This document shows positions 1,007 to 20,518 of a stretch of 54,074 nt of DNA, one piece after another. The notes beneath the pieces are model-generated. The model was not told the origin of the DNA. It made no database searches and saw only the letters and a list, made by a program, of their open reading frames with translations. Within the stretch, counting starts at the first letter, position 1. Every line of letters begins with the position of its first letter. A program made the position numbers and the translations under genes. The stretch is from the NCBI GenBank assembly GCA_022562475.1, contig JADFPD010000002.1:1-54074 (forward strand), given 5' to 3'. The DNA comes from Chloroflexota bacterium. GTDB taxonomy: Bacteria > Chloroflexota > Dehalococcoidia > Lucifugimonadales > UBA3495.

Positions 1007-1582
1007 CTACGCCGAAGGCGCCAGGCCGATCTGTTCGGCTATTGGCTTCATGCTCTCCACGATGAACGTGATGTGTTCGTCCAGGTCTATCCCCAGTTCG
1101 TCGGCGCCCTTCTGGATGTCGTCCCGGCTGACATCCTTGGCGAAGGCCTTGTCTTTCATCTTCTTGCGCACCGATTTGGGCGTCACTTCGTCCAGAGATT
1201 TAGACGGCCGGACCAACCCGACGGCCCGGATGAAGCCGGAAAGTTCGTCCACGGCGAAGAGGGTATGCTCCATCTGGGATTCGCGCGGGATCCCCGTGTG
1301 CTCTCCGTGGGTAAGCACCGCCCGGACGATGTCTTCGGGGTAGCCGTGGTCCCTGAGTATCTGGGCCCCGTAGGTCGGATGGTCCTGGGGAGTGGGACAG
1401 ATCTCCCAATCAAAGTCGTGGAGCAGTCCGGCGATGGCCCACCGCTCCTCGTCGCCGCCGAATTTGCGGGCGTAACCCCGCATGGAGGCCTCCACGGCGT
1501 ATAGGTGCTTCATCAGCATCTCGGTCTTCACGTGGGTTTGCAGAAACTCCAAGGTCCGTTCCCTACTCATCACGCCGGTCAT
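1007..1582 (-). CDS. HD/HDIG-domain metal-dependent phosphohydrolase
   Basis: ORF 1007..1678. Contains the ..AGLLHDFDWE.. HD motif and ..AVLTHGEHTG... The internal ATG at 1582 (MTGVMSRERT..) or 1570 is the likelier start because the upstream part overlaps trmI. The start is uncertain. Confidence 0.7.
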   Translation of the reverse strand: MTGVMSRERTLEFLQTHVKTEMLMKHLYAVEASMRGYARKFGGDEERWAIAGLLHDFDWEICPTPQDHPTYGAQILRDHGYPEDIVRAVLTHGEHTGIPRESQMEHTLFAVDELSGFIRAVGLVRPSKSLDEVTPKSVRKKMKDKAFAKDVSRDDIQKGADELGIDLDEHITFIVESMKPIAEQIGLAPSA

Positions 1583-2465
1583 CGGCGGCCTCCTCTGATT
1601 CCTCAGGTGGATCTTCAGCCAGATCGGCTTCCGGGGGCCTGCCGTCTTTTTGAGCGCGGCCGGTCGGCTTGGGCTCACAGCGGACCGCCGTGGTGAGAAA
1701 TCCGCTATGGGCGATCATTCGGTGGTCGGGGCGGACGCTCCGTTCCGTGACGTGCCAGGTGCGCAACAATGTCTCCAGCGACTCGATCATCTGGAACCGG
1801 CCGTCCTCTCCCAGGGCCAGGACCAGCCGCTGCACCTGCAGGATGGTGGGCACGAAGCTGAGCATTATCCCGCCCATCACCAAGACATCGCCGATGCCGG
1901 GCACTGCCTGCCATGGCTCCGGCACGTCCAATACCACCCGGTCAACGCCCTGTTCATCGATGCCTTGGTAGATGTCGCTGACCTTGACCTCAAGGTTGGA
2001 GGTGTCGGGGATAATGCGTTCGATGTTGCGCATCGCCTTGGGCAGCACTGCTTCGTCGATCTCGTAGGTGATCACCTTGCCGGTGTTGCCCACCGCACGG
2101 AGCAGCGCGGACGTCAGGGCACCGGAGCCCAGACCTCCCTCGACCACCGTGGCGCCGGGGAAAATATCGGCGAAATTGACGATGTTGCCCAGGTCCTTGG
2201 GGTAGATGATCTGGGGACCGCGGGGCATCTGGCGCACGAAGTCGCCCAGGGAGGGGCGCACCGCCAGCAGGATATGGCTCTTGTCGGTCCGGTACCACCC
2301 ACCGACGCTGCCGCCGATCATATCGTCGTGGGACAAACGGCCGAGATGGCAGTGGTAGGTCTCTCCTTCGGCCAGGGTGATCATATAGCGGCGCGCCTTG
2401 CGGTCGATGAGCAGGGCCAAGTCGCCGGGTTGGAAACAGTTCTTATCGGTCTGAATTTGGTTCAA
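1563..2465 (-). CDS. trmI: tRNA (adenine58-N1)-methyltransferase TrmI/GCD14 family
   Basis: 300-aa ORF. SAM-binding motif VVEGGLGSGALTSAL; N-terminal beta-domain GDLALLIDRKARRYMITL; DVPEPW motif. Acidic C-terminal tail. TTG start. Confidence 0.8.
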   Translation of the reverse strand: MNQIQTDKNCFQPGDLALLIDRKARRYMITLAEGETYHCHLGRLSHDDMIGGSVGGWYRTDKSHILLAVRPSLGDFVRQMPRGPQIIYPKDLGNIVNFADIFPGATVVEGGLGSGALTSALLRAVGNTGKVITYEIDEAVLPKAMRNIERIIPDTSNLEVKVSDIYQGIDEQGVDRVVLDVPEPWQAVPGIGDVLVMGGIMLSFVPTILQVQRLVLALGEDGRFQMIESLETLLRTWHVTERSVRPDHRMIAHSGFLTTAVRCEPKPTGRAQKDGRPPEADLAEDPPEESEEAADDRRDE

Positions 2466-2490
2466 ATCTGGGGTCCGCCTTGGCCGGAGC

Positions 2491-2889
2491 TTAGTCTTTG
2501 ACCGAGCCTGGGACCGAGGCCGGACGGCTGCCCTCCAGGTAGGTGGTGTTCACCGGTGAGTAGGGGTCCATATGGGGGAAAAAGACGATCAGTGAGGCTG
2601 TTTTATCGCCCACCACTTTGAACCCATGCTCGGCGCCCGGCGGTATGACCACGGTGTGGTCTTTCTCCACCGTGTGAGTCTCGCCGTTGATCCGCACCTC
2701 CAGGGTGCCTTCCATGATCATGATCAATTCGTCGATCGCGTGGGTGTGGAGGGGCGCCCCTGTGCCAGGTTCGGCGGTGTTCAGGCTGAGGGAGCTGGAG
2801 ACGCCGTGCTCTTCAAGGGTGACGTCCCACTTGCGGTAGCCGGGCCGCCAAGGGACTTCCGGGACGTTATTATGGTCGATGATGGGCAT
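2491..2889 (-). CDS. cupin domain protein
   Basis: Cupin motifs GAPLHTHAIDELIMIMEG and VVIPPGAEHGF. The ATG at 2889 is preceded by GGGAGAA, whereas the track's start at 2970 has no RBS. Confidence 0.7.
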   Translation of the reverse strand: MPIIDHNNVPEVPWRPGYRKWDVTLEEHGVSSSLSLNTAEPGTGAPLHTHAIDELIMIMEGTLEVRINGETHTVEKDHTVVIPPGAEHGFKVVGDKTASLIVFFPHMDPYSPVNTTYLEGSRPASVPGSVKD

Positions 2890-3073
2890 CTTTTCTCCCG
2901 TTTGAGCCGCGTATAGCCGAGTGTCCGGCGGTGCGTGGACCAACTTGGCTTTTTCGCCGGTGGCAGACATTGTACGCCATTTGCCGCTGTTGGTGGGCTC
3001 ACCAGAGACTGACTCAACCCAGCCGGCGCCGCGCGTTTTACCCGAAGGACCGCATGGGCTACAGTAAGGCTAA

Positions 3074-3433
3074 ATGATGGAAAGCGACCAATTCACATTA
3101 CAAGAGGCTAACGACTTGGTCCCGTGGCTGGAAGAAACATTCCAGCGCTTGACGGGCCTAAGAGATGAGATTGCCGGGCTCCGGAGCCGCGCCGGCGGCG
3201 AAGCGGTGGACCCGGACCAGGGGGAACTGGAAGCGTTGGAACGCGGGCTTGACGACGGTTTTCAAGAGATATTGGACCGGGGCATCATCGTCCGGAATAT
3301 CGCCAGCGGCTTGGTGGATTTCCCGTCGCAGCGCGAGGGTAGGGAAGTCTATCTTTGCTGGATCGGAGGGGAAGAACGGATCGATTTCTGGCACGAGACC
3401 GACCAGGGGTTTGCCCATAGGCAACCGTTGTAG
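3074..3433 (+). CDS. DUF2203 family protein
   Basis: 119 aa. N-terminal FTLQEANDLVPWLEE and C-terminal LVDFPSQREGREVYLCWIGGEERIDFWHE match my recollection of DUF2203. TAG stop. Confidence 0.7.
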   Translation: MMESDQFTLQEANDLVPWLEETFQRLTGLRDEIAGLRSRAGGEAVDPDQGELEALERGLDDGFQEILDRGIIVRNIASGLVDFPSQREGREVYLCWIGGEERIDFWHETDQGFAHRQPL

Positions 3434-3754
3434 GGTTGGCGCGTGGACTGAACCAACCGCCCATGCTGGGCTGACCGGCCCACCGTATTTTTTGATGAAT
3501 CACGATCCGGAATATTGAGGAATTTAGACTACATCTTCCGGTGGTGCTAGAGTTAGGATAACCCGGCGTTTTCGAATCGATATTCTAGCCTGTGGAAGCT
3601 GGGGTTCGTCGGTCGACGTTTTGGGATTTTGTGATGATCAACGATTTCCACAACCTGAAAGCCAAATCGTCTCCATTTTGGACATTCCCGGATCAACTCT
3701 ATTAACATGTCAGTAAACCAATAAAATTGTGGATATCCCAAGACTCACCTTCAT

Positions 3755-4459
3755 ATGAAAGACCTACTACGCAATCAGCTAGCTGAATCGGAAAGTCAAT
3801 TGAGCCAAGGTGCTAACAAACTAGCGTTTTTATCCGCATTCGGGGTGCTTGAAACTTGGATCGAAGCGCAGGTATCAATGTCCCCTAGAGATATCGATGC
3901 GCTGAGTTTCAAACAAAAGATCGACTCGTTAACAAAAGAGGGTGTTCTCGTTGGGTCTTCACCTTTGATGATGAAGCACCTTCACGATTGTCGTAATCTC
4001 GTTGCTCATAGGTTTTCATTCGAGCCGTCAACAGATCAGGCTCGCCAATGGATACGTTGGATCAAACAAATTACGCTAAAGGATGGGAACATTCGCTCTC
4101 TGATAACAACTCCCGTAACAACGATCGCAGAAACTGAGACCATTGAAAACGCCATCGCGTTGATGAAGGACCACGATTATTCTCAAATCCCGGTGATGCG
4201 GGCGAACCAGCCGATTGGATACATCGACGAATGGTCCGTTCTTAACGCATTGGCCCGAGGAGAAGGCATTCTGGATCCGAATGATCCAGTGTCGAGCATC
4301 GTTGAACTAGGCAAAATAACTAGGATTCCCATCGATACCGACTTAAACGAAGCGATGCGTTTATTGAGAAAACAGCGTCGTCCCGGGTTTCTGCTTGTGT
4401 TTGATGCAGACAATCTTGAAGGAATTCTAACTAAATCCGATGTGTTGAACCTCATTTAG
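3755..4459 (+). CDS. two-domain protein: N-terminal HEPN-superfamily/DUF4145-like helical domain (R80-N-x3-H85) fused to a C-terminal CBS pair
   Basis: 234 aa. The N-terminus ..KQKIDSLTKEGVLVGSSPLMMKHLHDCRNLVAHRF.. resembles the DUF4145/HEPN pattern (helper helix + RNxxAH, i.e. Rx4H). From about residue 113 there are two CBS motifs (ITTPVTTIAETETIENAIALMKDHDYSQIPVM.. and ..IPIDTDLNEAMRLLRKQRRPGFLLVFDADNLEGILTKSDVLNLI). It lies in AT-rich DNA. No clear SD sequence. Confidence 0.7.
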   Translation: MKDLLRNQLAESESQLSQGANKLAFLSAFGVLETWIEAQVSMSPRDIDALSFKQKIDSLTKEGVLVGSSPLMMKHLHDCRNLVAHRFSFEPSTDQARQWIRWIKQITLKDGNIRSLITTPVTTIAETETIENAIALMKDHDYSQIPVMRANQPIGYIDEWSVLNALARGEGILDPNDPVSSIVELGKITRIPIDTDLNEAMRLLRKQRRPGFLLVFDADNLEGILTKSDVLNLI

Positions 4460-4498
4460 TCCAGGCATCGAGGCAAATATTTCTCGTAGGAGTAACAT

Positions 4499-4987
4499 AT
4501 GGCCAGCCGTACCTTGGGGAAAGTGTTCTTTAGTCACGTCCACGAAGATGCAGACTGCGCTGAGAAAATCACTACCTGGCTTCAATACAATCTGAATCAC
4601 GGAATTGAATGCTTTTCTGCGTCGGACGCCGGCATATTACGACCCGGAACAATGTGGGCCGAGGAGATTAAAAAAGCATTACAAGATGCGGACCTGCTCA
4701 TAGTCTTGGTTAGTCCAAACAGTCTGCAGAGGGAATGGATTTATTTCGAAGCCGGGTGTGGGTTTGTTCGAGATATTCCCGTTATTCCGGTGTGTTGCGG
4801 TGGAATAACGAAAGCAGATTTAACCCCTCCGTTAAGTCTTTTGCAGGCGTTGAATCTTCCCGAAGAATCGATCAAGTTGATACGAGCCGTGGCAAACGTA
4901 AGCGGCATGACTGCCGTACGGCGGCCTACCAAACTTCTACTTCCAGCATTGACCAATAGTAAATTCATTTGGAAGCCCCATCCTTAA
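4499..4987 (+). CDS. stand-alone TIR-domain protein (TIR_2-like, ThsB-like)
   Basis: 162 aa. KVFFSHVHEDADCAEKITTWL .. ILRPGTMWAEEIKKALQDADLLIVLVSPNSLQREWIYFEAG follows the bacterial TIR pattern (FISYxxxD .. pG..w...i...i..s..vvvl.Sp.s..S.W...E). The candidate catalytic Glu is E84 in WIYFE. AGGAG lies 7 nt upstream of the ATG, which is 39 nt after the preceding gene. Confidence 0.75.
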   Translation: MASRTLGKVFFSHVHEDADCAEKITTWLQYNLNHGIECFSASDAGILRPGTMWAEEIKKALQDADLLIVLVSPNSLQREWIYFEAGCGFVRDIPVIPVCCGGITKADLTPPLSLLQALNLPEESIKLIRAVANVSGMTAVRRPTKLLLPALTNSKFIWKPHP

Positions 4988-5002
4988 CTCTGATCGGAGA
5001 GA

Positions 5003-5974
5003 ATGATGTCATATTCATTTGTCGCGCGAAGATTGAAAGCAGGAGGGGTGATTCTCTTAGACGGCGGATTCGGCACCGAAGCGGCGCGAAGGGGGGTGGA
5101 AGGAATCCATGACGCCGCCGCGTGGTCTGTTACCGCCCTCAATTCCCCCGAGATTGCCATAGGAATACATCGCGATTTTCTCGCCAGTGGGGCAGACGTA
5201 ATAACCACGGGAACTTTTCGAACTAATCGGAGCGCACTACGAAAGATAGCTTTGGAACAATTGGCTCGTCCGTTAACAATTTTTGGCCTTTCGCTAGCCC
5301 AAGAAGCCCAACTTGAATTGAGAGAGTCAAATAACCGCCAGACTTGTGTTGCAGGAAGTATTACCACTGTCGGGGATACCTACAGCAACACCAGTCTTGG
5401 TAGGGGAAGTGAATCAGAGCACCGCGAAAAATGCGATTGGCTATCTACGGGAGGAGTTGACCTAATCTTCGTTGAAACGATGCCGAGTCTGGATGAGGCT
5501 ATCTGCGCAGTCGAGTGTGCTGTTGAAAGGGGCAAACCGGCCTGGCTCAGCGTAGTACTAGTACCAGTTAGTGGTGGTAAACCAACGATGGTCGATGGTA
5601 CCACGATACCTGACTTGATACATTCTCTCTCCTCTATGTCGGCTCCTCCAGAGGCTGTGTTGTTCAATTGCTGCCAACCGGAATTGATTGGAACTGCGCT
5701 GAAGGAGGGAAGAGAAACACTGGCCGGACTTGGGAATCTAATCCATATGGGCGCGTACCCAAACATTGAGGAGCCAAGAGATGACCCCGGCGAACCGTGG
5801 GTCCGTCGAGCGGATATAACACCGCAAGTTTTTGCGCAGATGACCGAATATTGGATAGATGCCGGGGCCCGTATCGTTGGAGGATGTTGCGGTACTGGCC
5901 CTGATGACATTCGGGCGGTCAAGAAAATGCTGAATGAGAGGAAAAGAGGCGCGAAACCCCACCGCCGGTCTTGA
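5003..5974 (+). CDS. homocysteine S-methyltransferase family protein (PF02574-like)
   Basis: 323 aa. N-terminal ILLDGGFGTE and C-terminal zinc-site motif GGCCGTGPDDIRAV. GGAGAG RBS. The start is 15 nt after the TIR gene's stop. Confidence 0.8.
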   Translation: MMSYSFVARRLKAGGVILLDGGFGTEAARRGVEGIHDAAAWSVTALNSPEIAIGIHRDFLASGADVITTGTFRTNRSALRKIALEQLARPLTIFGLSLAQEAQLELRESNNRQTCVAGSITTVGDTYSNTSLGRGSESEHREKCDWLSTGGVDLIFVETMPSLDEAICAVECAVERGKPAWLSVVLVPVSGGKPTMVDGTTIPDLIHSLSSMSAPPEAVLFNCCQPELIGTALKEGRETLAGLGNLIHMGAYPNIEEPRDDPGEPWVRRADITPQVFAQMTEYWIDAGARIVGGCCGTGPDDIRAVKKMLNERKRGAKPHRRS

Positions 5975-5991
5975 ACGGCGGAGGGGAATCA

Positions 5992-6234
5992 TCATTGACT
6001 TGCCTGGAATGTCTCGAACTGACGCATCGTTAACCCGCATTTTTCCAGATAGCGCTGGCAGGCCGTGGGACCAATCAATAATGGCGGACCAATTAGTAGG
6101 ATTCCTGATCCCACCGTTGCCTCGTATATCCGGAACGGGCGGATGTCTAGTGCACTTTCTAACCTAATTAGCTCGGAATCCAAAAAATCGAAAAGTTCGC
6201 TTCTATTTACATCGCTGTTAGGCTCGCTGGGCAT
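5992..6234 (-). CDS. hypothetical small protein (doubtful)
   Basis: 80-aa ORF overlapping the HicB-like gene's end by 17 nt. No motif recognised and it does not look like HicA. It is kept only because of its position. Confidence 0.2.
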   Translation of the reverse strand: MPSEPNSDVNRSELFDFLDSELIRLESALDIRPFRIYEATVGSGILLIGPPLLIGPTACQRYLEKCGLTMRQFETFQASQ

Positions 6235-6529
6235 TCGCGATACTCACTCGTCCGGGCGTTTGGAGGAAAGTATCTGGAATGTCGATTCCAAATTTTGCCG
6301 TATGGTTTGATCTGGAATCTGAGACCTTCAAGTTTTTCTCGCTGATGTAATCACCGAGGCGGTCAAGTTCGACGAGCAGATCGAACTCCAACTGGAGACA
6401 AGTTCGCAAGCTGTCTTCGGCCTCTGCTTTCGACGAGCCGTGAGCTGGTGTGCCAGTCTCTTTACACATCGCCATATACTGGCTTCCGTCTCGCACAGCT
6501 TTGCTGAGGGTAACGTAGATCTTTGCCAA
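6218..6529 (-). CDS. HicB-like (UPF0150) antitoxin-family protein
   Basis: 103 aa. ..YMAMCKETGTPAHGSSKAEAEDSLRTCLQLEF.. fits the HicB N-terminal fold pattern (y.A.c.e.g..g.G.t.eEA...l). TTG start preceded by AGGAGAG. Confidence 0.5.
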   Translation of the reverse strand: MAKIYVTLSKAVRDGSQYMAMCKETGTPAHGSSKAEAEDSLRTCLQLEFDLLVELDRLGDYISEKNLKVSDSRSNHTAKFGIDIPDTFLQTPGRVSIANAQRA

Positions 6530-6986
6530 GATGCTCTCCTGGTGGATAGACTTTATTTTGAAGGCGGTGTGCGGCGCTGCAGTAGTATTTGGTACCGCCG
6601 ATCGTAACGGCTAGATGCCTTTCTGCTGAAGATTCTGTATTTAAAGGATTGTGGGATTGCCCACAAGGCGCACCTGTTACCAGCGCGCCTCACAGAGGCT
6701 ACATGAATGATATGGTAATGTCAATTTCTCCTTTTGACCAATCAACGTTGCAGGGTTCGAATGGTCACAACGAATTTCGTATTATAGTGCCGGTAAATCG
6801 GGCATATCAACCCCGACAGGTCACTGGGTTTATCTGATCTCTAGCCCTTAGTAACCATAATGGCGCTTGGCCAGTCCTTAAAACAAGGGTAATGTGTTCG
6901 ATTTTTTCACGATTTAATAATCATCGGCCAATATTAGTCCATTTTCAGCGTGGGCTAGATACGACTGGCAAGGTATTCGTAATCGG

Positions 6987-8483
6987 CTAAATAAACCGCG
7001 CCCGCTCCGTGGCTGCGGCTGCGTGGTCTATGTAGACGGTGATGACCTCGGTGAAGAAGTCGACCATCGCCGTGCCCTGCTCCCGCTGGCCTACGCCCGA
7101 GGAATTCAGGCCGCCGAAGGGCAGATGCACTTCGCCGCCCAAGGTGGAGGCGTTAACGTGGACCATGCCGGTCTCCACGGTGTTGATGTATTCGTAGGCC
7201 TTGGTGATGTCCTTGGTATAGACCGAGGATGAAAGGCCAAACTCCACAGAGTTGGATATCTCGATGGCTTCTTTCAGGTCCTTGACCTTGAACACCGTCA
7301 GCACCGGGCCGAATATCTCCTCTTGAGCGATGCGCATGCCGGGCGAAACACCGGTGAAGATGGTGGGTTCCACGTAATAACCCAGGTCGAAATCTCCGCC
7401 GCTAAGCGCCCGGCCGCCATAGACCAGGTTGGCCCCCTCTTCCGTGCCGATGCCGATGTATTCCATGACTTTGTCTTTCTGGCTCTGGCTGGACAGAGGC
7501 GATATGTCGATGGAAGGATCGATGCCGTCGCCGATGGTCAACTTGCTGGTCCGGTCGATGAGCTCGGCCATGAACTGGTCGTAGATGTCCTCTTCCACGA
7601 TGACCCGGCTGGTGGCGGTGCAGCGTTGGCCGGTGGACCCGAAAGCGCCCTGCACGATGCCGCCCATGGCTTTGTCCATGTCGGCGTCGGCCAGGATGAT
7701 CACGGCGTTCTTGCCGCCCATCTCGGCCTGGACTTTTTTCAGCCGCTTGGCGCTCTCTCCGTACAGTTCAGTGCCCACCTCGGTTGAACCGGTGAAGGAG
7801 ATGCCTTTCACGTCGGGACTCTCCACCAGGGCTTTGCCCACTTGGGCGCCCGGTCCGGTGACCAGGTTCAGCACGCCGGCGGGAAGGCCGGCCTCCTCGA
7901 ATATCTCGATCAACTTCACAGCGCTGAGGGGCGTGCCCGAGGCTGGCTTGAAGACCAATGCGTTGCCGCAGATGAGCGCCGGGGCTATCTTCCAGGTTGG
8001 GATGGCCAGAGGAAAGTTCCAGGGGGTGATTATCCCCACCACTCCCAGCGGGCGGCGCACGGTGTAGGCCACGGTGTTGGGCAATTCGGATGGGGTTGTG
8101 TAGCCGAACATGCGGCGTCCCTCGCCGGCAGCGTACTCCATGATGTTCATGGACCGCTTGACCTCACCCTGGGCGTCGCCGATGGGCTTGCCCTCTTCGA
8201 TGGTGATGGTCCGGGCCATCTCATCTGCCCGGCGGCCCATGATCTCCAAGGCTTTGTAGATGACGCCGGCCCGGGCCGGCGCTGGGGTGTTGGCCCAGAC
8301 GGTCAGGCCTTCCTTAGCGGCGGCCACGGCCCGCAGGGCGTCGTCGGCGCCGGAAGTCTGGAACTCGCCGACTATCTGGTCGATGCGGGCCGGGTTGTGG
8401 ACCTGATAGGTCCGGCCGGTCACCGATTCAACCCATTGGCCGCCGATGTAATTCTTGTGTGTCGTGATCTGCGTTTCCGCCAT
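6987..8483 (-). CDS. NAD(P)+-dependent aldehyde dehydrogenase
   Basis: 498 aa. ALDH motifs: FTGSTEVG, the catalytic-Cys region GQRCTATSR, EEIFGPV, and the Glu site AEMGGKNA. Confidence 0.9.
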   Translation of the reverse strand: MAETQITTHKNYIGGQWVESVTGRTYQVHNPARIDQIVGEFQTSGADDALRAVAAAKEGLTVWANTPAPARAGVIYKALEIMGRRADEMARTITIEEGKPIGDAQGEVKRSMNIMEYAAGEGRRMFGYTTPSELPNTVAYTVRRPLGVVGIITPWNFPLAIPTWKIAPALICGNALVFKPASGTPLSAVKLIEIFEEAGLPAGVLNLVTGPGAQVGKALVESPDVKGISFTGSTEVGTELYGESAKRLKKVQAEMGGKNAVIILADADMDKAMGGIVQGAFGSTGQRCTATSRVIVEEDIYDQFMAELIDRTSKLTIGDGIDPSIDISPLSSQSQKDKVMEYIGIGTEEGANLVYGGRALSGGDFDLGYYVEPTIFTGVSPGMRIAQEEIFGPVLTVFKVKDLKEAIEISNSVEFGLSSSVYTKDITKAYEYINTVETGMVHVNASTLGGEVHLPFGGLNSSGVGQREQGTAMVDFFTEVITVYIDHAAAATERARFI

Positions 8484-8543
8484 GGTTTCCTTCCTTAAGC
8501 TGTTCCTGAGAAATATTGGGTGAGGGGCCGAAGTTGCCGGAAT

Positions 8544-8990
8544 TTAGCCGCCCGAATACTCCAAGCCAACACCGATCACTTCGATCTGCATCGACCGGAC
8601 ATCGGGGGCGGCATCGTCGAACCGGACACCCAGGGTAACGTTGATGCCGCGGTGGATCTCCGGGTTGCCCGGCACGTCGAACCTGTGTTCCAGATGGTCG
8701 CCGCGCAGGTCCAGGTCCATGTGCTCGGCGATGCGGGACTCGCCGTCATAGATGATGACTTCGTGGACCGTGGCGTGGTCCCGGGTCCGGAAGCTGACGA
8801 TAGCCCCCTCGACCCGCATCTTGACGCCGTCAACAACCGCGGGCGTGGGCAGGGGGAAGTGGAGCCAGGTATTTTGGCCCCGCGCGCCTTCGATACGGAC
8901 GAAAGGCCCGGTGGCGCGGACCGAGGTCAGCCGGCTAGGGTATTCAACATGCATGTTTACGCCGTGCATCCACAGAGTTCGCTGTGGCAT
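8544..8990 (-). CDS. hypothetical protein
   Basis: 148-aa ORF with an AAGGGGG RBS upstream of the ATG. Codon usage resembles the neighbouring genes. No family recognised. Confidence 0.55.
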   Translation of the reverse strand: MPQRTLWMHGVNMHVEYPSRLTSVRATGPFVRIEGARGQNTWLHFPLPTPAVVDGVKMRVEGAIVSFRTRDHATVHEVIIYDGESRIAEHMDLDLRGDHLEHRFDVPGNPEIHRGINVTLGVRFDDAAPDVRSMQIEVIGVGLEYSGG

Positions 8991-9289
8991 GGGTTCGCCC
9001 CCTTAGCTTTTGGCCTGGGTTTCAGACATCAAGCCGTTGACCGCGCCGGGTCCGTGTGGCGCGTGCGGCACGCCTGGCCCGGCCAAGCTGGCAAAGATTA
9101 TAGCCGCAATTATCGTGCGGGTACAGCGGCGGTCTTCTCACCGAAGACGGGGTCTGGACCCGTAGAATTCCGTACAGGTCTGGCAGCAAGATGGTCGCCC
9201 AAGATTGAATCTTGACAAATGATTATTCATTGTATACAGTTTATCAACTGGAATTTCCTTAAAAACGTGAATTTGCGGAGGGAAGTGTA

Positions 9290-9808
9290 ATGTCTAAGAA
9301 CATTCTGGTTTCAGACAAGACGTATGCCAGACTACAGGGTTGTGTCGAGCCATTCGTAGACAAAGAGCCCGAAGACGTAATCATTCGTCTTCTGAATGAT
9401 TACGAAAATGCTAACGGCAGCGCCGACTTCCGAAACAGTTCCAGAACTGAGTCTATGGGCGGGGACTCGGTTCTGCCACGCGACCGAAACCCTCGTGAGA
9501 GGGGTACCACCGTCAAAATCAACGATCACCGGATTGACGCCGTCTCGGTCCGCGACCTCTACAAACAGGCTCTTAAGTACTTACTTGAAAACCACGAGGG
9601 CAGCTTGAAGCAACAGATCCCGTTCAAAACCAGCGACGCACGGTACCTGTTGAATACCAGCGCGAAACATCCACGCGGGAACCCATTTGTGATACCAATG
9701 GAGTACGAGGGCTACTACATGGAAGCGCACAAGGACTACAAAAACGGGATTGCGCACCTTCGCCGACTTGTCGAGCGACTAGGCCTGACGTTCGAATATC
9801 TCGGATAG
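9290..9808 (+). CDS. hypothetical protein (orphan gene in an AT-rich pocket)
   Basis: 172 aa with a GGAGGGA RBS. The N-terminus ILVSDKTYARLQ..VIIRLLNDYE looks like a ribbon-helix-helix/SeqA-N-like segment, which is a weak call. A short hairpin at 9810-9825 follows the TAG stop. Confidence 0.55.
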   Translation: MSKNILVSDKTYARLQGCVEPFVDKEPEDVIIRLLNDYENANGSADFRNSSRTESMGGDSVLPRDRNPRERGTTVKINDHRIDAVSVRDLYKQALKYLLENHEGSLKQQIPFKTSDARYLLNTSAKHPRGNPFVIPMEYEGYYMEAHKDYKNGIAHLRRLVERLGLTFEYLG

Positions 9809-9962
9809 CAGTGCTGTCTAGCACTAGTCGATGCATTATTATGTCGATCTGAAAGAGCGTAGCGGAGGAAGTATCCCTTAAACATGGTTAGACCTCTAGA
9901 TCGGATTTGGGTGCCACTACGATTTTAGGTAGACTAGCATCGGCAGAGGTGGAGTAGATACC

Positions 9963-10721
9963 ATGGGTAGACTCGAAGGCAAGGTTGCCATCATCACCGG
10001 CGGCGCACGGGGACAGGGCGCCCTGGAGGCCGAACTGTTCGCCAAAGAGGGGGCCAAGGTCGTGATCTGCGACATCTTGGACCAGGAGGGCAAAGACGTC
10101 GAGGCGAAGGTCCAGGCGGCGGGCGGCGACGTTGTCTATTCCCATCTGGACGTGACCCGGGACGACGACTGGCGGCAGGCGGTGGACCTGGCCGAATCCC
10201 GCTACGGAAAACTCGACATCCTGGTCAACAACGCCGGCATCACCCGGGGCGCGCTGTCCATCGAAGAGACATCCGAAGAGGGGTGGGACGAGGTCCTGGC
10301 GGTGAACGCCAAAGGCGTTTTCCTGGGCACCCGCCGGGCTATTCCGGCCATGCGTCGGGCCGGCGGCGGTTCCATCGTCAACGTATCGTCTATCGCCGGC
10401 ATCCTGGGACGTAAGTTGGCGCCGGCCGTCTATAGCGCGTCCAAGGGGGCCGTCCGTGTCTTCACCAAGAGCACGGCCATCCAGCACGCCCACGAGCGGA
10501 TTCGCTGCAATTCCATCCATCCGGGCCCCATCGACACCCCCATGCTGGCGGGGATCACCAGCAACCCGGCCATGCTCCAAGAACGGACCGATGAGGTGCC
10601 CTTGGGCCGGTTGGGCAGCTCCGAAGACGTCGCCTATGGGGTCCTTTACCTGGCCTCGGACGAGTCTTCGTGGATCACCGGGATAGAGTTGATCATCGAC
10701 GGCGGCATCACGGCGATGTAG
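9963..10721 (+). CDS. SDR-family oxidoreductase (3-alpha/20-beta-hydroxysteroid dehydrogenase-like)
   Basis: 252 aa. TGGARGQG Rossmann motif, NNAG, and the catalytic YSASK. Confidence 0.9.
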   Translation: MGRLEGKVAIITGGARGQGALEAELFAKEGAKVVICDILDQEGKDVEAKVQAAGGDVVYSHLDVTRDDDWRQAVDLAESRYGKLDILVNNAGITRGALSIEETSEEGWDEVLAVNAKGVFLGTRRAIPAMRRAGGGSIVNVSSIAGILGRKLAPAVYSASKGAVRVFTKSTAIQHAHERIRCNSIHPGPIDTPMLAGITSNPAMLQERTDEVPLGRLGSSEDVAYGVLYLASDESSWITGIELIIDGGITAM

Positions 10722-11858: not shown

Positions 11859-12053
11859 GAAGGGCCTCCGGGCTCTGGATTGGGTCGAGTCTAGCCCAAT
11901 CGTCGTTTGGCGGCAACGGTGAGAATAACGGTTCCCGCAGGGGACCAAAGACTCTTCTCCCATCCTTCCCCGAAAGGAGGGGAAGGTTAGGCCCGAAGGA
12001 GTCGAGGCTCACGACGATGTCGGAGATGGGGCCGGCGGCTGAGGTAAGCTAAC

Positions 12054-12590
12054 CTAAGGACTGGGAGTCGCGCTATCGGCGGGCACGGGTGTTTGGCTGC
12101 TGAAACTGCCGGAGAACGGGCAGCCCTCTTCCACCGCGACGAACTGCATCAGCATGCGCCATCGTCCGTCTTCCCGAACGATAGGGTAAGGAATGGCGGC
12201 AACGTAGGCGTCAATCTCGCCCCGCCTGCCAGGCCGGGGTTCGCCGGTGAGTTCCATAGTCATGAAGGCCCGGTCCGGGTCCCCTTCCGCCACGAATACA
12301 TCTTTGACTTGCATAGCGGGATAGGTCAGAGCGTTTTCATCCCTCTCAAAGAATTGCTCGAACTCCTCGACAGTACAATTGTCGCTGATATTTGACGCCA
12401 ACAGCCGTCGCACCGCCGCCGCATCATGTTTGTTAGTCGCATCAAGCCAGCTATCGAACAGCTCCACAGCCGCCTTCTTGACTTCAGCCGCGGACTGGAG
12501 GTTGACGGCGGGGGTTGGACCGTCTGTGCCGCAGGCGACGGCAAGGGCTAGAGTGGCGGCGATGAGGGGGATGATTGCTGAGGGTCTCAA
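12054..12590 (-). CDS. lipoprotein with an NTF2/SnoaL-like domain
   Basis: 178 aa. Signal peptide plus lipobox LALAVAC|G. TTG start. The first ~45 codons are duplicated at 14832-14959. Confidence 0.7.
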   Translation of the reverse strand: MRPSAIIPLIAATLALAVACGTDGPTPAVNLQSAAEVKKAAVELFDSWLDATNKHDAAAVRRLLASNISDNCTVEEFEQFFERDENALTYPAMQVKDVFVAEGDPDRAFMTMELTGEPRPGRRGEIDAYVAAIPYPIVREDGRWRMLMQFVAVEEGCPFSGSFSSQTPVPADSATPSP

Positions 12591-12643
12591 ATTGAATGAA
12601 TCCTTTCTCGGGAAGCGTAGATACGTTCGGCATTATAAATACG

Positions 12644-12675
12644 AAAGCCCAGCAGGTTTCGTTTGCTGGGCTTTT
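12644..12675 (-). terminator. hairpin aaagcccagcag-N8-ctgctgggcttt downstream of the (partial) tRNA-Gly copy
   Basis: Perfect GC-rich stem flanked by A/T runs. An identical copy lies at 15012-15043. Confidence 0.5.
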
Positions 12676-12692
12676 GATTCACTTGCAAAAGT

Positions 12693-12737
12693 TGGAGCGG
12701 AAGACGAGATTTGAACTCGCGACCCCCTCCTTGGCAA
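12693..12737 (-). pseudogene. partial tRNA-Gly (3' 45 nt: anticodon loop to CCA), displaced att-site copy
   Basis: Identical to 15061..15105 of the intact tRNA-Gly. Confidence 0.9.
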
Positions 12738-12834
12738 ATGCATTTTTTCACACCTCAGGGTGTCTCTCCGCGCCCACCGACGGTAACAGGGCGCGGCATC
12801 TCTGTATCCGGGTATATCACGTTGTCTCCCCCCG

Positions 12835-12858
12835 TTGGTACAAAAATTGGTACAAAAA
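12835..12858. repeat. perfect tandem 12-mer x2 (ttggtacaaaaa), about 100 nt inside the islet border
   Basis: Read directly from the sequence: cccg ttggtacaaaaa ttggtacaaaaa ccattgg. Confidence 0.9.
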
Positions 12859-13026
12859 CCATTGGCTCACCGAAGGTGTGGCCCGTTGGGTTCGTTTCAC
12901 AAAAACACCGGTCATCCGGCATCGGCCAAAACAACAAGTGATGTACCTGACCGGAGGAGCGTGCATACGGGGAATGTACCTAAGGAACACTAAGACCCGG
13001 CAAATCATCAGTTGGACTGTGGCCGC

Positions 13027-13659
13027 CTATATGTTCATCTCTCGGCGTGTTCTCACTGCTTGTGGCAATCTTCCAGCCGAAACATCTTTGAACTTGCCGG
13101 TATGTATCTTGATGAACGGCGGTCCATTGAATGCTAGCAATCTCGGAACAACACCATGCCGTGTGCTGCACCAATAGTAGATTCTAGGTCCATCATCCCC
13201 GACATAATCGAAGTGCCCGGCGATACGTAGAAAATCGGTCTTCCGCTTCGGAAACATGTCCAACCCGACGGTTGCGCGAATTAGGAAGTAGTGGTCGCCA
13301 TCGATTTCATAACGGGATCTGTCTCGGATGTTATGAAGGGGATTCCATTCGGCATGGCCATCTTTTGTTATTCGAAAGAATTCCTTTGTGGCAACTAGGG
13401 TGCCGTCATCCTCGATCTTAGATAAGAACTTAACAGGAATGTAGAGGAAGTAATGAACTTCGTCGGCGTTGAATGACATTAGCCATTTGTTATTTTCGAA
13501 GCGGAAGTCCAGGACCGCCTCATCGGTTCCCGCCTTTACGATCATTTCGGTCGATAAGGTGATACTGGGCCAGCGAAGGACCAATGACAGCACGAGCCCG
13601 GCTATAGTGGCGACAATTAAGCCGGACGCAATCGCGGAAACGTCGATGATTCCGAACAT
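13027..13659 (-). CDS. hypothetical membrane-anchored protein
   Basis: 210 aa with an N-terminal TM helix (IASGLIVATIAGLVLSLVL). AT-rich codon usage. No family recognised. Confidence 0.55.
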   Translation of the reverse strand: MFGIIDVSAIASGLIVATIAGLVLSLVLRWPSITLSTEMIVKAGTDEAVLDFRFENNKWLMSFNADEVHYFLYIPVKFLSKIEDDGTLVATKEFFRITKDGHAEWNPLHNIRDRSRYEIDGDHYFLIRATVGLDMFPKRKTDFLRIAGHFDYVGDDGPRIYYWCSTRHGVVPRLLAFNGPPFIKIHTGKFKDVSAGRLPQAVRTRREMNI

Positions 13660-13937
13660 TTACCCCCTTTGCAAGCCCAGCGGGCTTCAACTAAAACCAG
13701 CTCATCACAGGCAACCGGCTCCCTGCCTCCTAGCTTTCCGCTCCAACCCCACCAGGTAGTCCTGGTGTTGCCCGTCACGAGTCCAGGCTGTGGCCAAGCC
13801 TTCGCGGATCAGAGTCTCGTCGATGCTGGTGCGGTGTAGACGTAGGCCAGGATGCGCCCGAACCGGTCTGAGAGCCTGGGTCCATCTTCAAGCCGCACGA
13901 TCTCACTAGCAAGTTCGGGTTTCGGGAGTTGGCGCGT

Positions 13938-14603
13938 TTACCCTATCCTCGATTGCACCTTGGCCCAGATGCTGGGTGGCAGGTTCTCTTCCGCCAATTG
14001 AAGAGCGCGCTGAGCAATTTCAGGAGGCGCGTTGGCCTTGATGCCTCCCAGAATCGGGGCTATATCGTCGGGGCCGCAGCTTGAGCACATCACCTTTAAC
14101 AAGTACCCTCTGCGGTCCGGAGGGATCGTTGCAACGAGTTCCCGGGACATGGCCAGCAGTTCCTCTTCGGTAAAGTTGTCCCAGAGCGCCTGCTGCAACT
14201 CCGTTTCTTCCCGGTATAGGTGGCCCAGGTAGATGCCGATGTAGGCGTTCAGCTGCTCGTGGAGACGTATACCCAGAGCAACACGCTGGTCGCCTATGGC
14301 GCTCCTTATCTGTGCGACCAGTTGCTCTATTTCCGCAGACAACGCCTCGTCTTCTTCGTGTTCCTCCTCACACCGTGCTGTAACACCCGGCGCCCGGCTC
14401 TCTAAGAGAGGATGGATCGACGCGTCTTCGCGGGACCGGTGCTCCCACAGGACAAAGATGAGGGCATCGATGGTTTCCAGAGTTTCCGCGGTGACGCCAT
14501 CGTCCGCGAAGTCGGTTACGCCGACCTGGTGGGACGCCGAAAATAGCAGGTGGCGAATCGCCTTGTGTGTGGCCCGGTAGGTGTAGTGTCTCGCCTGAGT
14601 CAT
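13938..14603 (-). CDS. hemerythrin HHE cation-binding domain protein
   Basis: Repeated H/E motifs: THKAIRHLL, WEHRSREDASIHPLLE, EEEHEEDEAL, YLGHLYREETEL. The ATG at 14603 (MTQARHY..) is preferred over the track's start at 14663. Confidence 0.7.
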   Translation of the reverse strand: MTQARHYTYRATHKAIRHLLFSASHQVGVTDFADDGVTAETLETIDALIFVLWEHRSREDASIHPLLESRAPGVTARCEEEHEEDEALSAEIEQLVAQIRSAIGDQRVALGIRLHEQLNAYIGIYLGHLYREETELQQALWDNFTEEELLAMSRELVATIPPDRRGYLLKVMCSSCGPDDIAPILGGIKANAPPEIAQRALQLAEENLPPSIWAKVQSRIG

Positions 14604-14831
14604 CGGTCCCCCGTCAGCCTGCCGCTGGGAAAGAATCGTGGCAAGATGGTAACAGAGAGACAAGCCATTGGCATCGGCAAACGTTCACCCCGCTCTGGAA
14701 AATGTAGATGACTTGGAATAGAATCTCCAACTCATCAGAGCCACTATTCCCCAAGCAACCAGCAGGCCTACTCCAACCTCACCTGCGATATAAGGGGCAG
14801 GTCCGGTTGGTAATGTATAGTCGTTGAAGAA

Positions 14832-15135
<304 letters not shown>

Positions 15136-15176
15136 TCGACTTTTTCCGGCATTTAGACCGGCTCCAAGATTGTTAA

Positions 15177-15194
15177 TGGCGCCGAGGGACAGAC
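15177..15194. repeat. distal att repeat: 17/18 match to the 3' end of tRNA-Phe (tggCgccgagggacagac)
   Basis: Compare 20938..20955 (tggTgccgagggacagac). It covers the CCA, discriminator, acceptor 3' strand, T-stem 3' strand and 2 nt of the T-loop. Confidence 0.85.
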
Positions 15195-15313
15195 AGAGGA
15201 AGCTATATCCCATCACGTCTCACCAAGGTGTAATAACGTGCCTAGTAGTATAGCAGAACCGGCTCGATTCTTGTCCACTATCCCTTGGTCTACCTGGCTG
15301 TACCTCCTGGTAT

Positions 15314-15336
15314 GTCGGCATTTTGGTCGGCATTTT
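15314..15336. repeat. tandem 11-mer x2 (gtcggcatttt g gtcggcatttt) immediately after the integrase remnant's stop
   Basis: Read directly from the sequence. Confidence 0.85.
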
Positions 15337-15711
15337 CTAACCTTGTTCCATCGCTTTGGCAAACGCGTTCGCGGCTTCTTTTTGCGCGCCCGGCATTAAA
15401 TGGCCATACACATCCCCGGTTGTAGCCACCGATGCGTGGCCCAGACGGCGACTCACCAACAGCAGACTTGCTCCATTCTGGAACATGACTGTCGCGTGAA
15501 AGTGGCGCAGGTCATGAAGGCGTGTCCGTTCCAAGCCCAACCGCTTTGCGTAAGTTTGGTATACACGGGTAAGGGTCATTGGATTTAGTGGGTCACCAAG
15601 TGGGCCAGGGAATAGCAAGCCATTGTCTTGGTACGATTCTTCGAGCTCAATAGGGCGGAGAAGTTGCCTGCCAATATGGGCACGCAGAATGGCAATCGTC
15701 CCATGGTCCAA
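15337..15711 (-). pseudogene. tyrosine recombinase/phage integrase remnant (C-terminal catalytic part only)
   Basis: LHDLRHFHAT (HxxR), LGHASVATT and the catalytic-Tyr region DVYGHL are present. The segment that normally holds the first catalytic Arg (between ..DLDHGTIAI and LRAH..) is missing. An in-frame TAG lies 12 codons upstream of the TTG. Confidence 0.8.
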
Positions 15712-15985
15712 GTCTACCGCCCGACGGCCAGCCGCTTGCCTGCTTCGCTAAGCTGGAACCCGCATACTGGACACCAGTGGCCGATAGTCTCGTAGTGAAC
15801 ACCGTTACTACGTCTTAGGCTTGCCTTGGTAGCCCGTGCAATCACCTTCTGGCCACTGTGGCCCGTGGTAAACCGTGGTTCCCTTACGGCTCTCTGATGG
15901 GCTTCCGGAGGCTACCGAGGGCATGTTTTCAGTGTAACAGTGGTAACGCGCACCCCCTAACTGAATCGTGTCATAATACCGGCAA

Positions 15986-15999
15986 CTTTTTAGGCAGAT
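15986..15999 (+). repeat. 14-nt motif ctttttaggcagat, copy 1 (16 nt before the DUF1330 ATG)
   Basis: An exact second copy lies at 16334..16347. Confidence 0.85.
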
Positions 16000-16015
16000 T
16001 TCAAGGAGGCAAGCA

Positions 16016-16306
16016 ATGGCGGCATGGGTGATTGCAGCAATTCAAAGTGTGAGTGATGAGGCCGGTTTCGCGGCTTATCAAGAACTAGGCGGACCGACGG
16101 TGGCCAAGTACGGTGGCAAGCGTGTGGCCGCCGGAACCAAAATAGAAGTAGCCGACGGCACGTGGTCTCCCATTAGGATGGTGGTGATTGAGTTCGAGAA
16201 CCTAGAGAAAGCTAAGACGTGGTACAACTCGCCGGAATACCAGGCAGCAAAGGAGAAAAGAATTAGCTCAAGTGACGGCGGGTTCATTTTCTTAGATGGC
16301 GCGTAA
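16016..16306 (+). CDS. DUF1330 domain protein
   Basis: 96 aa. The pattern ..Y.....P...KYGG......G..EV.EG.W.P.R.V.IEF.S.E.A..WY.S.EY.. matches DUF1330. AAGGAGG RBS. Confidence 0.85.
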   Translation: MAAWVIAAIQSVSDEAGFAAYQELGGPTVAKYGGKRVAAGTKIEVADGTWSPIRMVVIEFENLEKAKTWYNSPEYQAAKEKRISSSDGGFIFLDGA

Positions 16307-16333
16307 GCCGGGCGAGCCTAGTTAATCCACTAT

Positions 16334-16347
16334 CTTTTTAGGCAGAT
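16334..16347 (+). repeat. 14-nt motif ctttttaggcagat, copy 2 (5 nt before the GAF-kinase ATG)
   Basis: Exact copy of 15986..15999. Confidence 0.85.
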
Positions 16348-16352
16348 ACTGC

Positions 16353-18140: not shown

Positions 18141-18152
18141 CGAGGCGGGCTA

Positions 18153-18521
18153 GTGGTGCCGGCCTGGGCCGGACAAAGGTCAAACGTAGATGAGGACATA
18201 GTAATTCCGCCGGGCGTCCTATCTGCTGGCCAAGCGTACGCACAGCGGCGGCCGGTCTGGATCGAGGACTACTTTGTCGGTGAGTCCGTGGCCCCAACCG
18301 CCGAAGAGAGAGAGTGGGTGTTTCAAAATTCTCGATCGCTTGGTTTAAGCTCTGGCATGTCGGTGCCAGTTATTGTTCGTGATGAGATATATGGGGTTCT
18401 GGCTATAAATTTCTTCAAGCCTCATCAATACACGGAGACGGAAGTCCAGCTTCTTCAGAACCTGGCTGATAGCGCCGCCGTGGCTATCGGCAATGCCCGG
18501 TTCATCGAGGAGACCGAGTAG
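18153..18521 (+). CDS. sensor histidine kinase, segment 2: remainder of GAF module 4; ends at a second in-frame TAG
   Basis: Continues the GAF4 sequence (..[47 protein letters not shown]). The GTG 'start' is only the first possible initiator after the TAG. Confidence 0.55.
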
Positions 18522-18530
18522 GCACGGGAC

Positions 18531-19277
18531 GTGGCGGAAGAAGCCAACCGGACCAAGAGCCAGTTCTTAGCCAACATGAGCCACGAACTGCGCACTCCTT
18601 TGAACGCCATCATCGGCTATAGCGAGATGCTTCAGGAAGAGGCGGCAGATTTAGAGAACGAGGAATTCGAGGAAGACCTGGAGCGTATCAACAATGCAGG
18701 CAAACACCTGCTGGGCCTGATCAACGATGTCTTGGACATCTCCAAAATCGAAGCCGGGGCCATGGACATCTACCTTGAGACATTCCCGGTGGAGCCAATG
18801 ATTCAAGATGTAGCTACCACGATGCAGACCTTGGTGGAGAAGAACTTCAACACGCTGGAGATAGATTGCCCCGATTCAGTTGGCTCCATCCACGCCGATA
18901 CCACCAAGATCAGGCAATGCCTGTTTAACCTGCTCAGCAACGCCAGCAAGTTCACTGATCACGGGACTATTTCACTGATTGTTAGCCGATACACCGAAGA
19001 CGGCCAAGAGTGGATCAACTTCGCCGTAGGTGACACGGGCATTGGCATGACCGAAGAACAGATGGGACGGCTCTTTGAAGCCTTTGCTCAGGCAGAAGCC
19101 TCGACCAGAAGAAATTACGGCGGCACGGGTCTGGGCTTGGCCATCACCCGCCACTTCTGCGAGATGATGGGCGGCACCGTCCTGGTAGAGAGTGAAGCTG
19201 GTAAAGGGTCTACGTTCACCATGAAGATACCTGCGGTTGTGGACGAGTCTATTGGCAACGGAGACTCAGATAGGTAG
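18531..19277 (+). CDS. sensor histidine kinase, segment 3: HisKA + HATPase_c catalytic core
   Basis: H-box [15 protein letters not shown]-box [10 protein letters not shown]1 DTGIGM, G2 GGTGLGLAI. The coiled-coil linker starts upstream of the TAG at 18519-18521. Confidence 0.8.
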
Positions 19278-19281
19278 GGAT

Positions 19282-20085: not shown

Positions 20086-20142
20086 GTACTCCGGCTGTCT
20101 GAAGTGAGTTTGACTTCAGAACGATTTAGCAACAAATCTCCC

Positions 20143-20190
20143 GTCCGGTCCCACCCTATTTCACCAGGGCGTAGCTGTATGCCAACGGGC
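20143..20190. repeat. dispersed repeat, copy A (gtccggtcccacc ..36 nt.. atgccaacgggc)
   Basis: Both boxes recur at 20519..20588 with 58-nt spacing. The two copies flank the small Zn-ribbon ORF. Confidence 0.6.
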
Positions 20191-20208
20191 CTACTTGGCA
20201 CTCACCTG

Positions 20209-20427: not shown

Positions 20428-20518
20428 AAATCCTCCTGACTAAGGTCGGAACTTTCGTTTAGAAACGTTATACCAAAAAAGAAAATCCGGTCAACCTTGC
20501 TTTCCCTCAAAAACCTTT

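Follow-up and report, generated by a model that had tools for sequence, protein, structure and literature searches.

The window analyzed here is a stretch of 54,074 nucleotides from a marine Chloroflexota genome (contig JADFPD010000002.1, assembly GCA_022562475.1), in which two adjacent open reading frames (ORFs) encode a HEPN-CBS protein (gene 1) and a minimal TIR protein (gene 2). The original prediction had joined the two into a Thoeris-like module in which the CBS pair reads the product of the TIR. This pairing was not found elsewhere: none of the 10 other genomic contexts of the HEPN-CBS family holds a TIR gene, and none of 29 loci with relatives of the TIR holds a HEPN-CBS gene. By its sequence, gene 1 is a member of a rare, unnamed HEPN-CBS family, and it probably acts as an autonomous ligand-gated abortive-infection RNase beside a separate, possibly truncated TIR module. 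The comparisons below show the domains and their motifs, the membership of the family, the gene contexts and the variability of the hotspot; from them we infer the RNase activity, the ligand gating, the abortive infection and the independence of the two genes. The features of the two genes are the following.

3755-4459, + strand: gene 1, HEPN-CBS protein, ORF of 234 amino acids (aa)
3755-4084, + strand: N-terminal HEPN-type helical domain of gene 1, aa 1-110, from profiles and model
3992-4009, + strand: R80-N81-L-V-A-H85 motif (Rx4H), predicted catalytic; R80 is CGT at 3992-3994 and H85 is CAT at 4007-4009
4091-4453, + strand: CBS pair (Bateman module) of gene 1, aa 113-233; PF00571 in two stretches, E=1.7e-19
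4488-4492, + strand: AGGAG ribosome-binding site (RBS) of gene 2, read from the sequence, 6 nt before the ATG
4499-4987, + strand: gene 2, minimal TIR protein, 162 aa; Glu84 codon GAA at 4748-4750

The HEPN-CBS protein and its family

The two ORFs, their common direction, the 39-nt gap between them and the AGGAG RBS were all confirmed as first described. Gene callers differ on the start of gene 1, placing it either at ATG 3755 (234 aa) or at TTG 3800 (219 aa). As L9 and E13 are conserved when the three closest sequences are aligned, and as the 17-member family shares the first helix, the ATG at 3755, which has no obvious RBS, is favored.

A word-indexed search of 5.8 billion proteins with gene 1 as query retrieved only the query itself. 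Exhaustive phmmer with residues 1-112 against 1.84 billion representatives gave three real matches including the query, the other two being P0009 (240 aa, same architecture) and the truncated P0007; P0008, a repeat protein of 550 aa, was discarded as a low-complexity false match. A profile built from three sequences then gathered ~18 full-length proteins of 225-240 aa (E 1e-52 to 1e-125), which are 26-34% identical to the window protein and come from metagenomes throughout, save for one Chloroflexi metagenome-assembled genome (MAG). No homologue was found on plasmids by tblastn or in a scan of viral contigs, and a scan of genome collections returned one Chloroflexi MAG and one CBS-only match, nothing else.

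HEPN domains have been defined by a pair of alpha-hairpins, with helices 2 and 3 separated by an insert, by an Rx4-6H motif that ends helix 3 and has a polar residue after the R, and by an acidic residue in helix 2 (PMC3710099). The AlphaFold2 model of gene 1 computed on the family alignment (predicted local distance difference test, pLDDT, 87.8) fits this definition in its topology, with helices at residues 2-17, 21-39, 69-85 and 93-107, an insert at 44-61, and then a canonical CBS pair; a single-sequence model, at a pLDDT of 45, was unusable. R80 to H85 lie at the end of the helix at 69-85, and E33 lies in the helix at 21-39. The 17-sequence alignment has no substitution at R80, H85, E33 or in the F-E-P-S loop that follows the motif, and N81, the polar residue after R, is nearly invariant (at least 90% conserved). 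When the 17 N-domains were compared with Pfam, DUF4145 was matched by 9 (best E 2.8e-5), HEPN_Swt1 by 6, PaREP1 by 5, HepT-like and HepT-like_2 by 4 each, RiboL-PSP by 2, and HEPN by 1. The sole recurrent family not of the HEPN type was MauJ, in 2 of the 17, and no Pfam match attained the gathering score. Motif, topology and profiles together make the assignment of the N-domain to HEPN well supported; a structure match is not among its bases. The R80-x4-H85 signature in a DUF4145-like setting, as originally read, is thus borne out in its residues, with DUF4145 itself staying below threshold. All three domains that had been named, TIR, HEPN and the CBS pair, are supported, HEPN in the way just described and with no match by structure.

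The two CBS motifs were upheld by both Pfam and Foldseek. The top PDB matches were all CBS-pair proteins (template modelling score 0.75-0.82, normalised to target), and the fold matches in the PDB include complexes with AMP, ADP, ATP, Ap4A, and S-adenosylmethionine (SAM). Invariant in the CBS half of the 17 sequences are P120, V121, P146, V147, G155, G171, D174, T226 and D229, of which G155, T226 and D229 occupy G-h-h-T-x-x-D positions (window segment G-I-L-T226-K-S-D229), so that the ribose-binding G-h-h-T/S-x-x-D pattern of CBS pairs is present. In NCBIfam, all 17 members score best against the Bateman region of cystathionine beta-synthase. Since the window protein keeps every family-invariant CBS residue, it presumably binds the same ligand as its relatives that have no TIR.

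The short TIR and the genomic contexts of both genes

The assignment of gene 2 to TIR was confirmed by Pfam (TIR_2, E=2.3e-14; ThsB_TIR, PF08937, 29.8 bits against a cutoff of 21.2, E=8.4e-7) and by the ThsB models of PADLOC (E down to 8e-7), and W80 and E84, both singled out in the original prediction, are invariant among its relatives. Because the catalytic Glu is kept, gene 2 is presumably an NAD-consuming enzyme. Its closest relatives are 44-48% identical (BLASTP) and include two of 271-274 aa with a C-terminal winged-helix domain. By tblastn, relatives of ~250 aa were found on plasmids, among them a 4.6-kb Klebsiella plasmid on which the TIR gene is the only cargo besides ccdAB, mobilisation and replication genes, and 25 viral contigs of IMG/VR also carry relatives. 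The best PHROG for gene 2 is phrog_29177 (E=4.7e-25), a profile of 250 positions of which only 5-129 are matched. Among the 28 relatives on viral contigs and plasmids, the stop-to-stop open frame is at least 250 aa, except for one split by a frameshift, and the full-length relatives aligned with gene 2 carry a C-terminal extension. As far as these alignments go, gene 2 is a short form within a TIR subfamily carried by phages and plasmids, and it lacks the C-terminal domain of its relatives, which is a winged helix in the closest ones and unassigned in those on plasmids. Gene 2 may act alone or be a truncated remnant; with its C-terminal domain lost, it may be constitutively weak, depend on another factor or persist as a relic.

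One of the relatives, P0003 (L003, 10001-10825), is a TIR protein of 274 aa. Its winged-helix domain (aa 185-262), which is missing from the window TIR, matches the Lamassu LmuC model (PADLOC PDLC03869, E=2.6e-9) and, weakly, the ABC-3C middle components MC2 and MC4.

To compare gene contexts, we used 11 distinct ones for the HEPN-CBS gene (the window and 10 others, the metagenome contigs L001 and L002 being identical to the window) and, for the TIR, 29 loci with relatives (28 on viral contigs or plasmids and the P0003 locus), with 5 kb around each. The window, with L001 and L002, is the one context of the 11 in which a TIR gene adjoins HEPN-CBS; there was none in the other 10. A hidden Markov model (HMM) of the TIR subfamily recovered the window gene and found nothing at E up to 10 in the HEPN-CBS loci that it covered, all but that of P0019, and the precomputed Pfam annotations of the loci that carry them, that of P0019 included, hold no TIR. 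Conversely, no HEPN-CBS gene lies within 5 kb of the TIR relatives at any of the 29 loci. Co-occurrence of the pair across genomes, a check named beforehand, therefore went against the two-gene Thoeris-like module with a CBS pair reading the TIR product, as the pair is not syntenic in 10 + 29 other loci. Given this lack of conserved pairing, two separate modules are more likely than a Thoeris-like system.

Three of the 11 HEPN-CBS contexts lie in or beside Hma (DUF1156/DUF499) operons, two of them between hmaA and hmaB. In L004 and in L007-L009, the HEPN-CBS gene stands between a SNF2-NOV_C helicase gene and a DUF1156 methyltransferase gene. A DUF499 ATPase gene comes next in L007-L009, and the L007 operon was called Hma by PADLOC (HmaA 3.8e-193, HmaB 1.3e-103, HmaC 1.8e-105); in L004, two small ORFs separate the HEPN-CBS gene from the methyltransferase gene. 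In L018 (2640-3430) and L019 (233-1023), a HEPN-CBS homologue is frameshifted into two ORFs beside a decayed DUF1156 methyltransferase gene, and the two appear to be eroding together. Hma is experimentally supported, and the gap between hmaA and hmaB is a hotspot for inserted defense systems (PMC11232893); the Hma loci, renamed type-1 BREX-related, often carry HEPN backup effectors (PMC12839542). No Hma genes were found in the window near 3421-6985, and gene 1 itself lies outside any Hma locus.

The remaining contexts are varied. In L011, the HEPN-CBS gene stands between DUF2283 and HicB-like genes among heme-synthesis genes, and in L005 it lies among sugar-metabolism genes; L010, L012 and L017 have unrelated or opposite-strand neighbors, and at one locus a DUF4287/DUF5655 gene directly follows it. 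Partners that vary or are lacking over the 11 contexts are consistent with action by a single gene, which is a matter of context and not a functional test. Autonomy of gene 1 is supported by the lack of a common partner among its relatives, and its ligand would be available without a dedicated TIR, as the relatives have none.

Several neighbors at these loci were recorded in passing. The Hma operon of L007-L009 is part of a larger defense island, and its flanks hold a SIR2_2-domain gene (1-572) and a second large HIRAN-domain helicase gene (12618-12714). Upstream of the frameshifted copies in L018 and L019 lie a gene for an SMC-like coiled-coil protein and an ORF of 385 aa. Between the HEPN-CBS and DUF1156 genes of L004 (2137-2934, + strand) is an ORF of 217-265 aa with no Pfam or PADLOC match, in which a possible PD-(D/E)xK-like D...QxK pattern was noted by eye only. 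The neighbor in L010 (261-2084, + strand; 607 aa) weakly matches the HMM of the family N-domain (E=3.4e-5), and that in L013 (4475-5047, + strand; 190 aa) contains a segment, H-D-L-R-D-L, that recalls HEPN; neither protein has a library match.

The islet and the proposed explanation

Genes 1 and 2 lie in an islet with these further features.

3421-6985, no strand: islet of low GC, variable between strains, flanked by the genes for DUF2203 and aldehyde dehydrogenase
3467-3482: terminator-like hairpin that closes the upstream DUF2203 gene
3679-3708, + strand: weak match to a sigma-70-like promoter, upstream of gene 1 (TGGACA-18-TAACAT, 9/12 matches)
5003-5974, + strand: gene 3, homocysteine S-methyltransferase, inside the islet (PF02574, E=3.8e-57)
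6218-6529, - strand: ORF of 103 aa at the far end of the islet (ORF call)

The GC content is 44-48% over 3501-5000 and 44-53% over the whole islet against 59-64% in the flanks, in keeping with the AT-richer DNA noticed at the outset. The aldehyde dehydrogenase beside the islet falls, at 90% identity or more, into a cluster with proteins named Dehalococcoidia, Chloroflexota and SAR202, which places the host in the Chloroflexota. When the window was aligned by blastn with the related 96-kb contig L048, positions 1469-3420 and 6986-9128 aligned and 3421-6985 did not. In L048, this segment is replaced by 1.6 kb (L048 10499-12141) with a Fic gene (382 aa, Fic_N/Fic), within a backbone common to both contigs: M24 peptidase, short-chain dehydrogenase, DUF6623 and aldehyde dehydrogenase, then DUF2203, cupin and TrmI. 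As the Fic gene occupies the same site in a related genome, 3421-6985 is a variable hotspot, and by this alignment it resembles a small integration hotspot whose cargo differs between related Chloroflexota genomes. No integrase and no flanking repeats were found at the hotspot, and Rfam and repeat scans of the islet revealed no riboswitch, att-like repeats or inverted repeats. We take 3421-6985 to be foreign, horizontally acquired, strain-variable cargo, and the foreign, defense-like setting first proposed is supported; both genes have the look of anti-phage genes.

Gene 3 starts 16 nt past the TIR stop and has no counterpart at the same site in L048. Since no terminator was predicted between genes 1, 2 and 3, they are probably one transcription unit; sigma-70-like sites in the islet are not above the shuffled expectation in number. 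For the 103-aa ORF, no significant family was found in Pfam, NCBIfam, PADLOC or PHROGs, and a HicB-like identity, suggested by eye, was dropped, as there was no library match and no similarity to the HicB-like gene beside P0017.

Elsewhere in the window, a second lower-GC insertion that is specific to it and missing from L048 lies at 9129-9964. It contains an ORF of 172 aa (9290-9808, + strand) whose first 55 residues weakly match SepA, a type IV secretion system effector (NF047386, E=3.3e-7, below cutoff); no other family was matched. Positions 12000-21000, of mixed and lower GC (52-58%), may be another variable region, with tRNA-Gly inside (15061-15135), tRNA-Phe at the end (20938-21013), a triple-GAF protein (16353-18140) and a histidine kinase fragment (18531-19277).

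We propose that the islet would hold two separate conflict-type modules and a methyltransferase gene in one transcription unit, and that the adjacency of genes 1 and 2 would reflect the accretion of conflict genes at a hotspot. In gene 1, E33 (helix 2) and R80-N81-x3-H85 (end of helix 3) would form the active site of a four-helix HEPN domain, and the Bateman module would bind an adenosine-containing metabolite in its cleft, for which ATP/ADP/AMP, Ap4A, SAM, and NAD-derived compounds are candidates. To judge from dimeric HEPN enzymes and from DS-11, a published CBS and HEPN protein compared below, binding or loss of the ligand would alter the geometry of the gene 1 dimer, and the altered dimer would switch on RNA cleavage and arrest the infected cell.

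Several points weigh against this explanation. The contexts sampled are few (11 and 29 loci), and many of the contigs are short. Genes 1 and 2 are co-directional and 39 nt apart with no predicted terminator between them, so that a functional link is possible, and the window TIR is the only member of its subfamily seen without the C-terminal domain, which could make it dependent on a partner. As for the HEPN domain, DUF4145 on gene 1 (aa 51-100) reached 20.7 bits for the whole protein and 22.7 for the domain alone, under a cutoff of 23.1; the N-domain profile found no HEPN entry among PDB sequences, with noise only (E at least 0.4); and the meaningful Foldseek matches of the whole gene 1 model in the PDB and BFVD were all to the CBS half.

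Under a signaling scheme close to the original prediction, infection would make the TIR convert NAD+ to an ADP-ribose-derived messenger, which would bind the CBS pair and turn on the HEPN RNase. The tight, co-directional linkage with a good RBS would fit, as would the adenosine ligands of CBS pairs (the AMP, ADP, ATP, Ap4A and SAM complexes among the fold matches), a window TIR that stands without the C-terminal domain of its relatives, its score above the ThsB_TIR cutoff and the occasional fusion of DUF4145-type HEPN domains to TIR (PMC3710099, Table 1). However, synteny is missing from both sides (0/10 HEPN-CBS contexts, 0/29 TIR loci), the family-invariant CBS residues are all kept, which presumably implies the ligand of the TIR-less relatives, DS-11 functions as a single protein, and none of the publications searched links Thoeris with CBS domains; we consider this scheme to be very unlikely. 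It is likewise highly doubtful that the window TIR shed its C-terminal sensor domain and was wired to the HEPN-CBS RNase, with the Bateman module reading an NAD-derived adenosine nucleotide. If true, such wiring would be the first TIR signaling system with a CBS receptor and a HEPN effector, put together recently and only once from two modules that are otherwise independent. For the original prediction, the yield is mostly negative: a TIR gene tightly linked to a gene with a sensor-like domain is insufficient for inferring a Thoeris-like pair; here, synteny separates the two.

The HEPN-CBS protein could also be a trans-acting suicide RNase that serves a neighboring primary system, like PrrC in a type I restriction-modification operon. 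In its relatives this would be the Hma/BREX-related system, with the CBS pair perhaps monitoring a cofactor, for instance SAM depleted by phage SAM lyases, and in the window gene 1 would be orphaned or re-paired with the TIR. Consistent with this are the three contexts in or beside Hma operons (one with the frameshifted copy by a decayed DUF1156 gene), the HEPN backup effectors published for such loci (PMC12839542), an HmaC in L007 without a Pfam-detectable HEPN domain, the best match of 17/17 members to the cystathionine beta-synthase Bateman region together with SAM-bound structures among the fold matches, and the SAM-related methyltransferase gene that comes next in the window. Yet 8 of the 11 contexts have no Hma genes, several being without any obvious partner, unrelated systems also insert into the hmaA-hmaB gap, a general hotspot (PMC11232893), and the SAM link is circumstantial, with a generic CBS similarity, so we regard such a role as unlikely. 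A role outside immunity would make gene 1 a metabolite-responsive regulatory RNase of housekeeping RNA turnover, co-expressed with a methionine-salvage methyltransferase, and the TIR a decayed remnant. Such a role would agree with the 2013 proposal of ligand-regulated RNA stability (Anantharaman et al., PMC3710099), with members among metabolic genes (L005, sugar metabolism; L011, heme synthesis), with the homocysteine S-methyltransferase gene in the transcription unit of gene 1 and with a window TIR truncated relative to its subfamily. The family is, however, patchy and rare, lies in low-GC variable DNA and recurs in defense operons and by toxin-antitoxin-like genes, and at least one copy is a pseudogene; patchiness, rarity, defense settings and the pseudogene form the pattern of a conflict gene and not of a housekeeping one, and the non-immune role seems most improbable to us. 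An autonomous ligand-gated RNase beside a separate TIR module is the explanation that we favor.

Comparison with known systems

Like Csm6/Csx1, the CARF-HEPN proteins of type III CRISPR, gene 1 would have a nucleotide sensor that controls a dimeric Rx4-6H HEPN RNase. The sensor of Csm6/Csx1, however, is CARF, which reads cyclic oligoadenylates made by Cas10 and is unrelated in sequence to the CBS pair of gene 1, and no cyclase lies near gene 1. HEPN backup effectors, such as PrrC in EcoprrI and those of BREX and DUF499 'BR'/Hma loci, are found inside their host operons (PMC12839542, PMC3710099). The relatives of gene 1 between hmaA and hmaB are likewise inside the operon, as are PrrC and the stand-alone BREX/BR HEPN genes. 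In contrast to gene 1, these HEPN effectors are not reported with CBS sensors, and 'CBS' is absent from the main text of the BREX survey (PMC12839542).

With Thoeris, the locus has in common a compact TIR encoded on its own, which keeps the catalytic Glu and is matched by ThsB_TIR models, and an adjoining gene in which a nucleotide-binding sensor domain is fused to an effector domain. It differs in that gene 1 has no SLOG, Macro or SIR2 (no PADLOC match, and CBS and HEPN-clan families only in Pfam), in that the HEPN-CBS neighbor was not found with a TIR in the other 10 contexts, and in that the other members of the gene 2 subfamily carry a C-terminal domain of their own and are encoded singly on phages and plasmids. 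The literature search returned no publication linking Thoeris with CBS domains. The proteins of phrog_29177 and of plasmids (WP_074192387.1, WP_016654325.1) share with gene 2 a TIR core of 33-42% identity, W80, E84 and the IPVIPxC...PLSLLQ extension; they run to ~250-375 aa with a C-terminal domain (winged-helix and LmuC-like in P0003), whereas gene 2 stops at 162.

The original prediction also knew of no described Thoeris type with a CBS sensor or a HEPN effector. TIR-to-CBS signaling is still undescribed in the papers searched, but defense by CBS plus HEPN has been published. Fusions of HEPN with CBS were pointed out in 2013 as candidate RNases under ligand control (PMC3710099), and DS-11, a one-protein CBS and HEPN anti-phage system, protects E. 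coli (DefensePredictor, Science 2026, PMC13092281). Its defense is lost with Y157A in the adenine pocket of the CBS domain or with HEPN R330A/H335A, and its authors propose that an unknown adenine derivative on the CBS domain regulates the nuclease (PMC13092281).

We compared DS-11 (E. coli WP_000257686.1) with gene 1 through the NCBIfam model NF053863 and the published mutant residues. Each is one polypeptide with a CBS pair and an Rx4H HEPN domain, and the logic proposed for DS-11, an adenosine-ligand-gated RNase, is that proposed here for gene 1. The domain order differs, CBS (Y157) then HEPN (R330/H335) in DS-11 and HEPN (R80/H85) then CBS (113-233) in gene 1, as does the size (365 aa against 234 aa). 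NF053863 matched gene 1 in the CBS region only, at 35.1 bits against a cutoff of 260, and matched 2 of the 17 family members. A specific kinship of the CBS parts was rejected, the cystathionine beta-synthase Bateman region being best in 17/17 and DS-11 matched in 2/17. The reversed order and the CBS-only match point to independent assembly of the two domains and not to orthology; from these comparisons, gene 1 looks like a separately assembled, permuted analogue of DS-11.

What is new here is a family of HEPN-CBS proteins, rare, compact and permuted, that is found repeatedly in Hma operons and is of a kind known since DS-11. Its recurrence in these BREX-related operons offers a natural setting in which to ask which metabolite is sensed during infection and whether the protein has a backup role. 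Gene 1 would be the second, independently assembled and much smaller one-protein CBS and HEPN architecture, DS-11 alone having been tested, and a second such architecture would show the repeated recruitment of Bateman modules as immune sensors.

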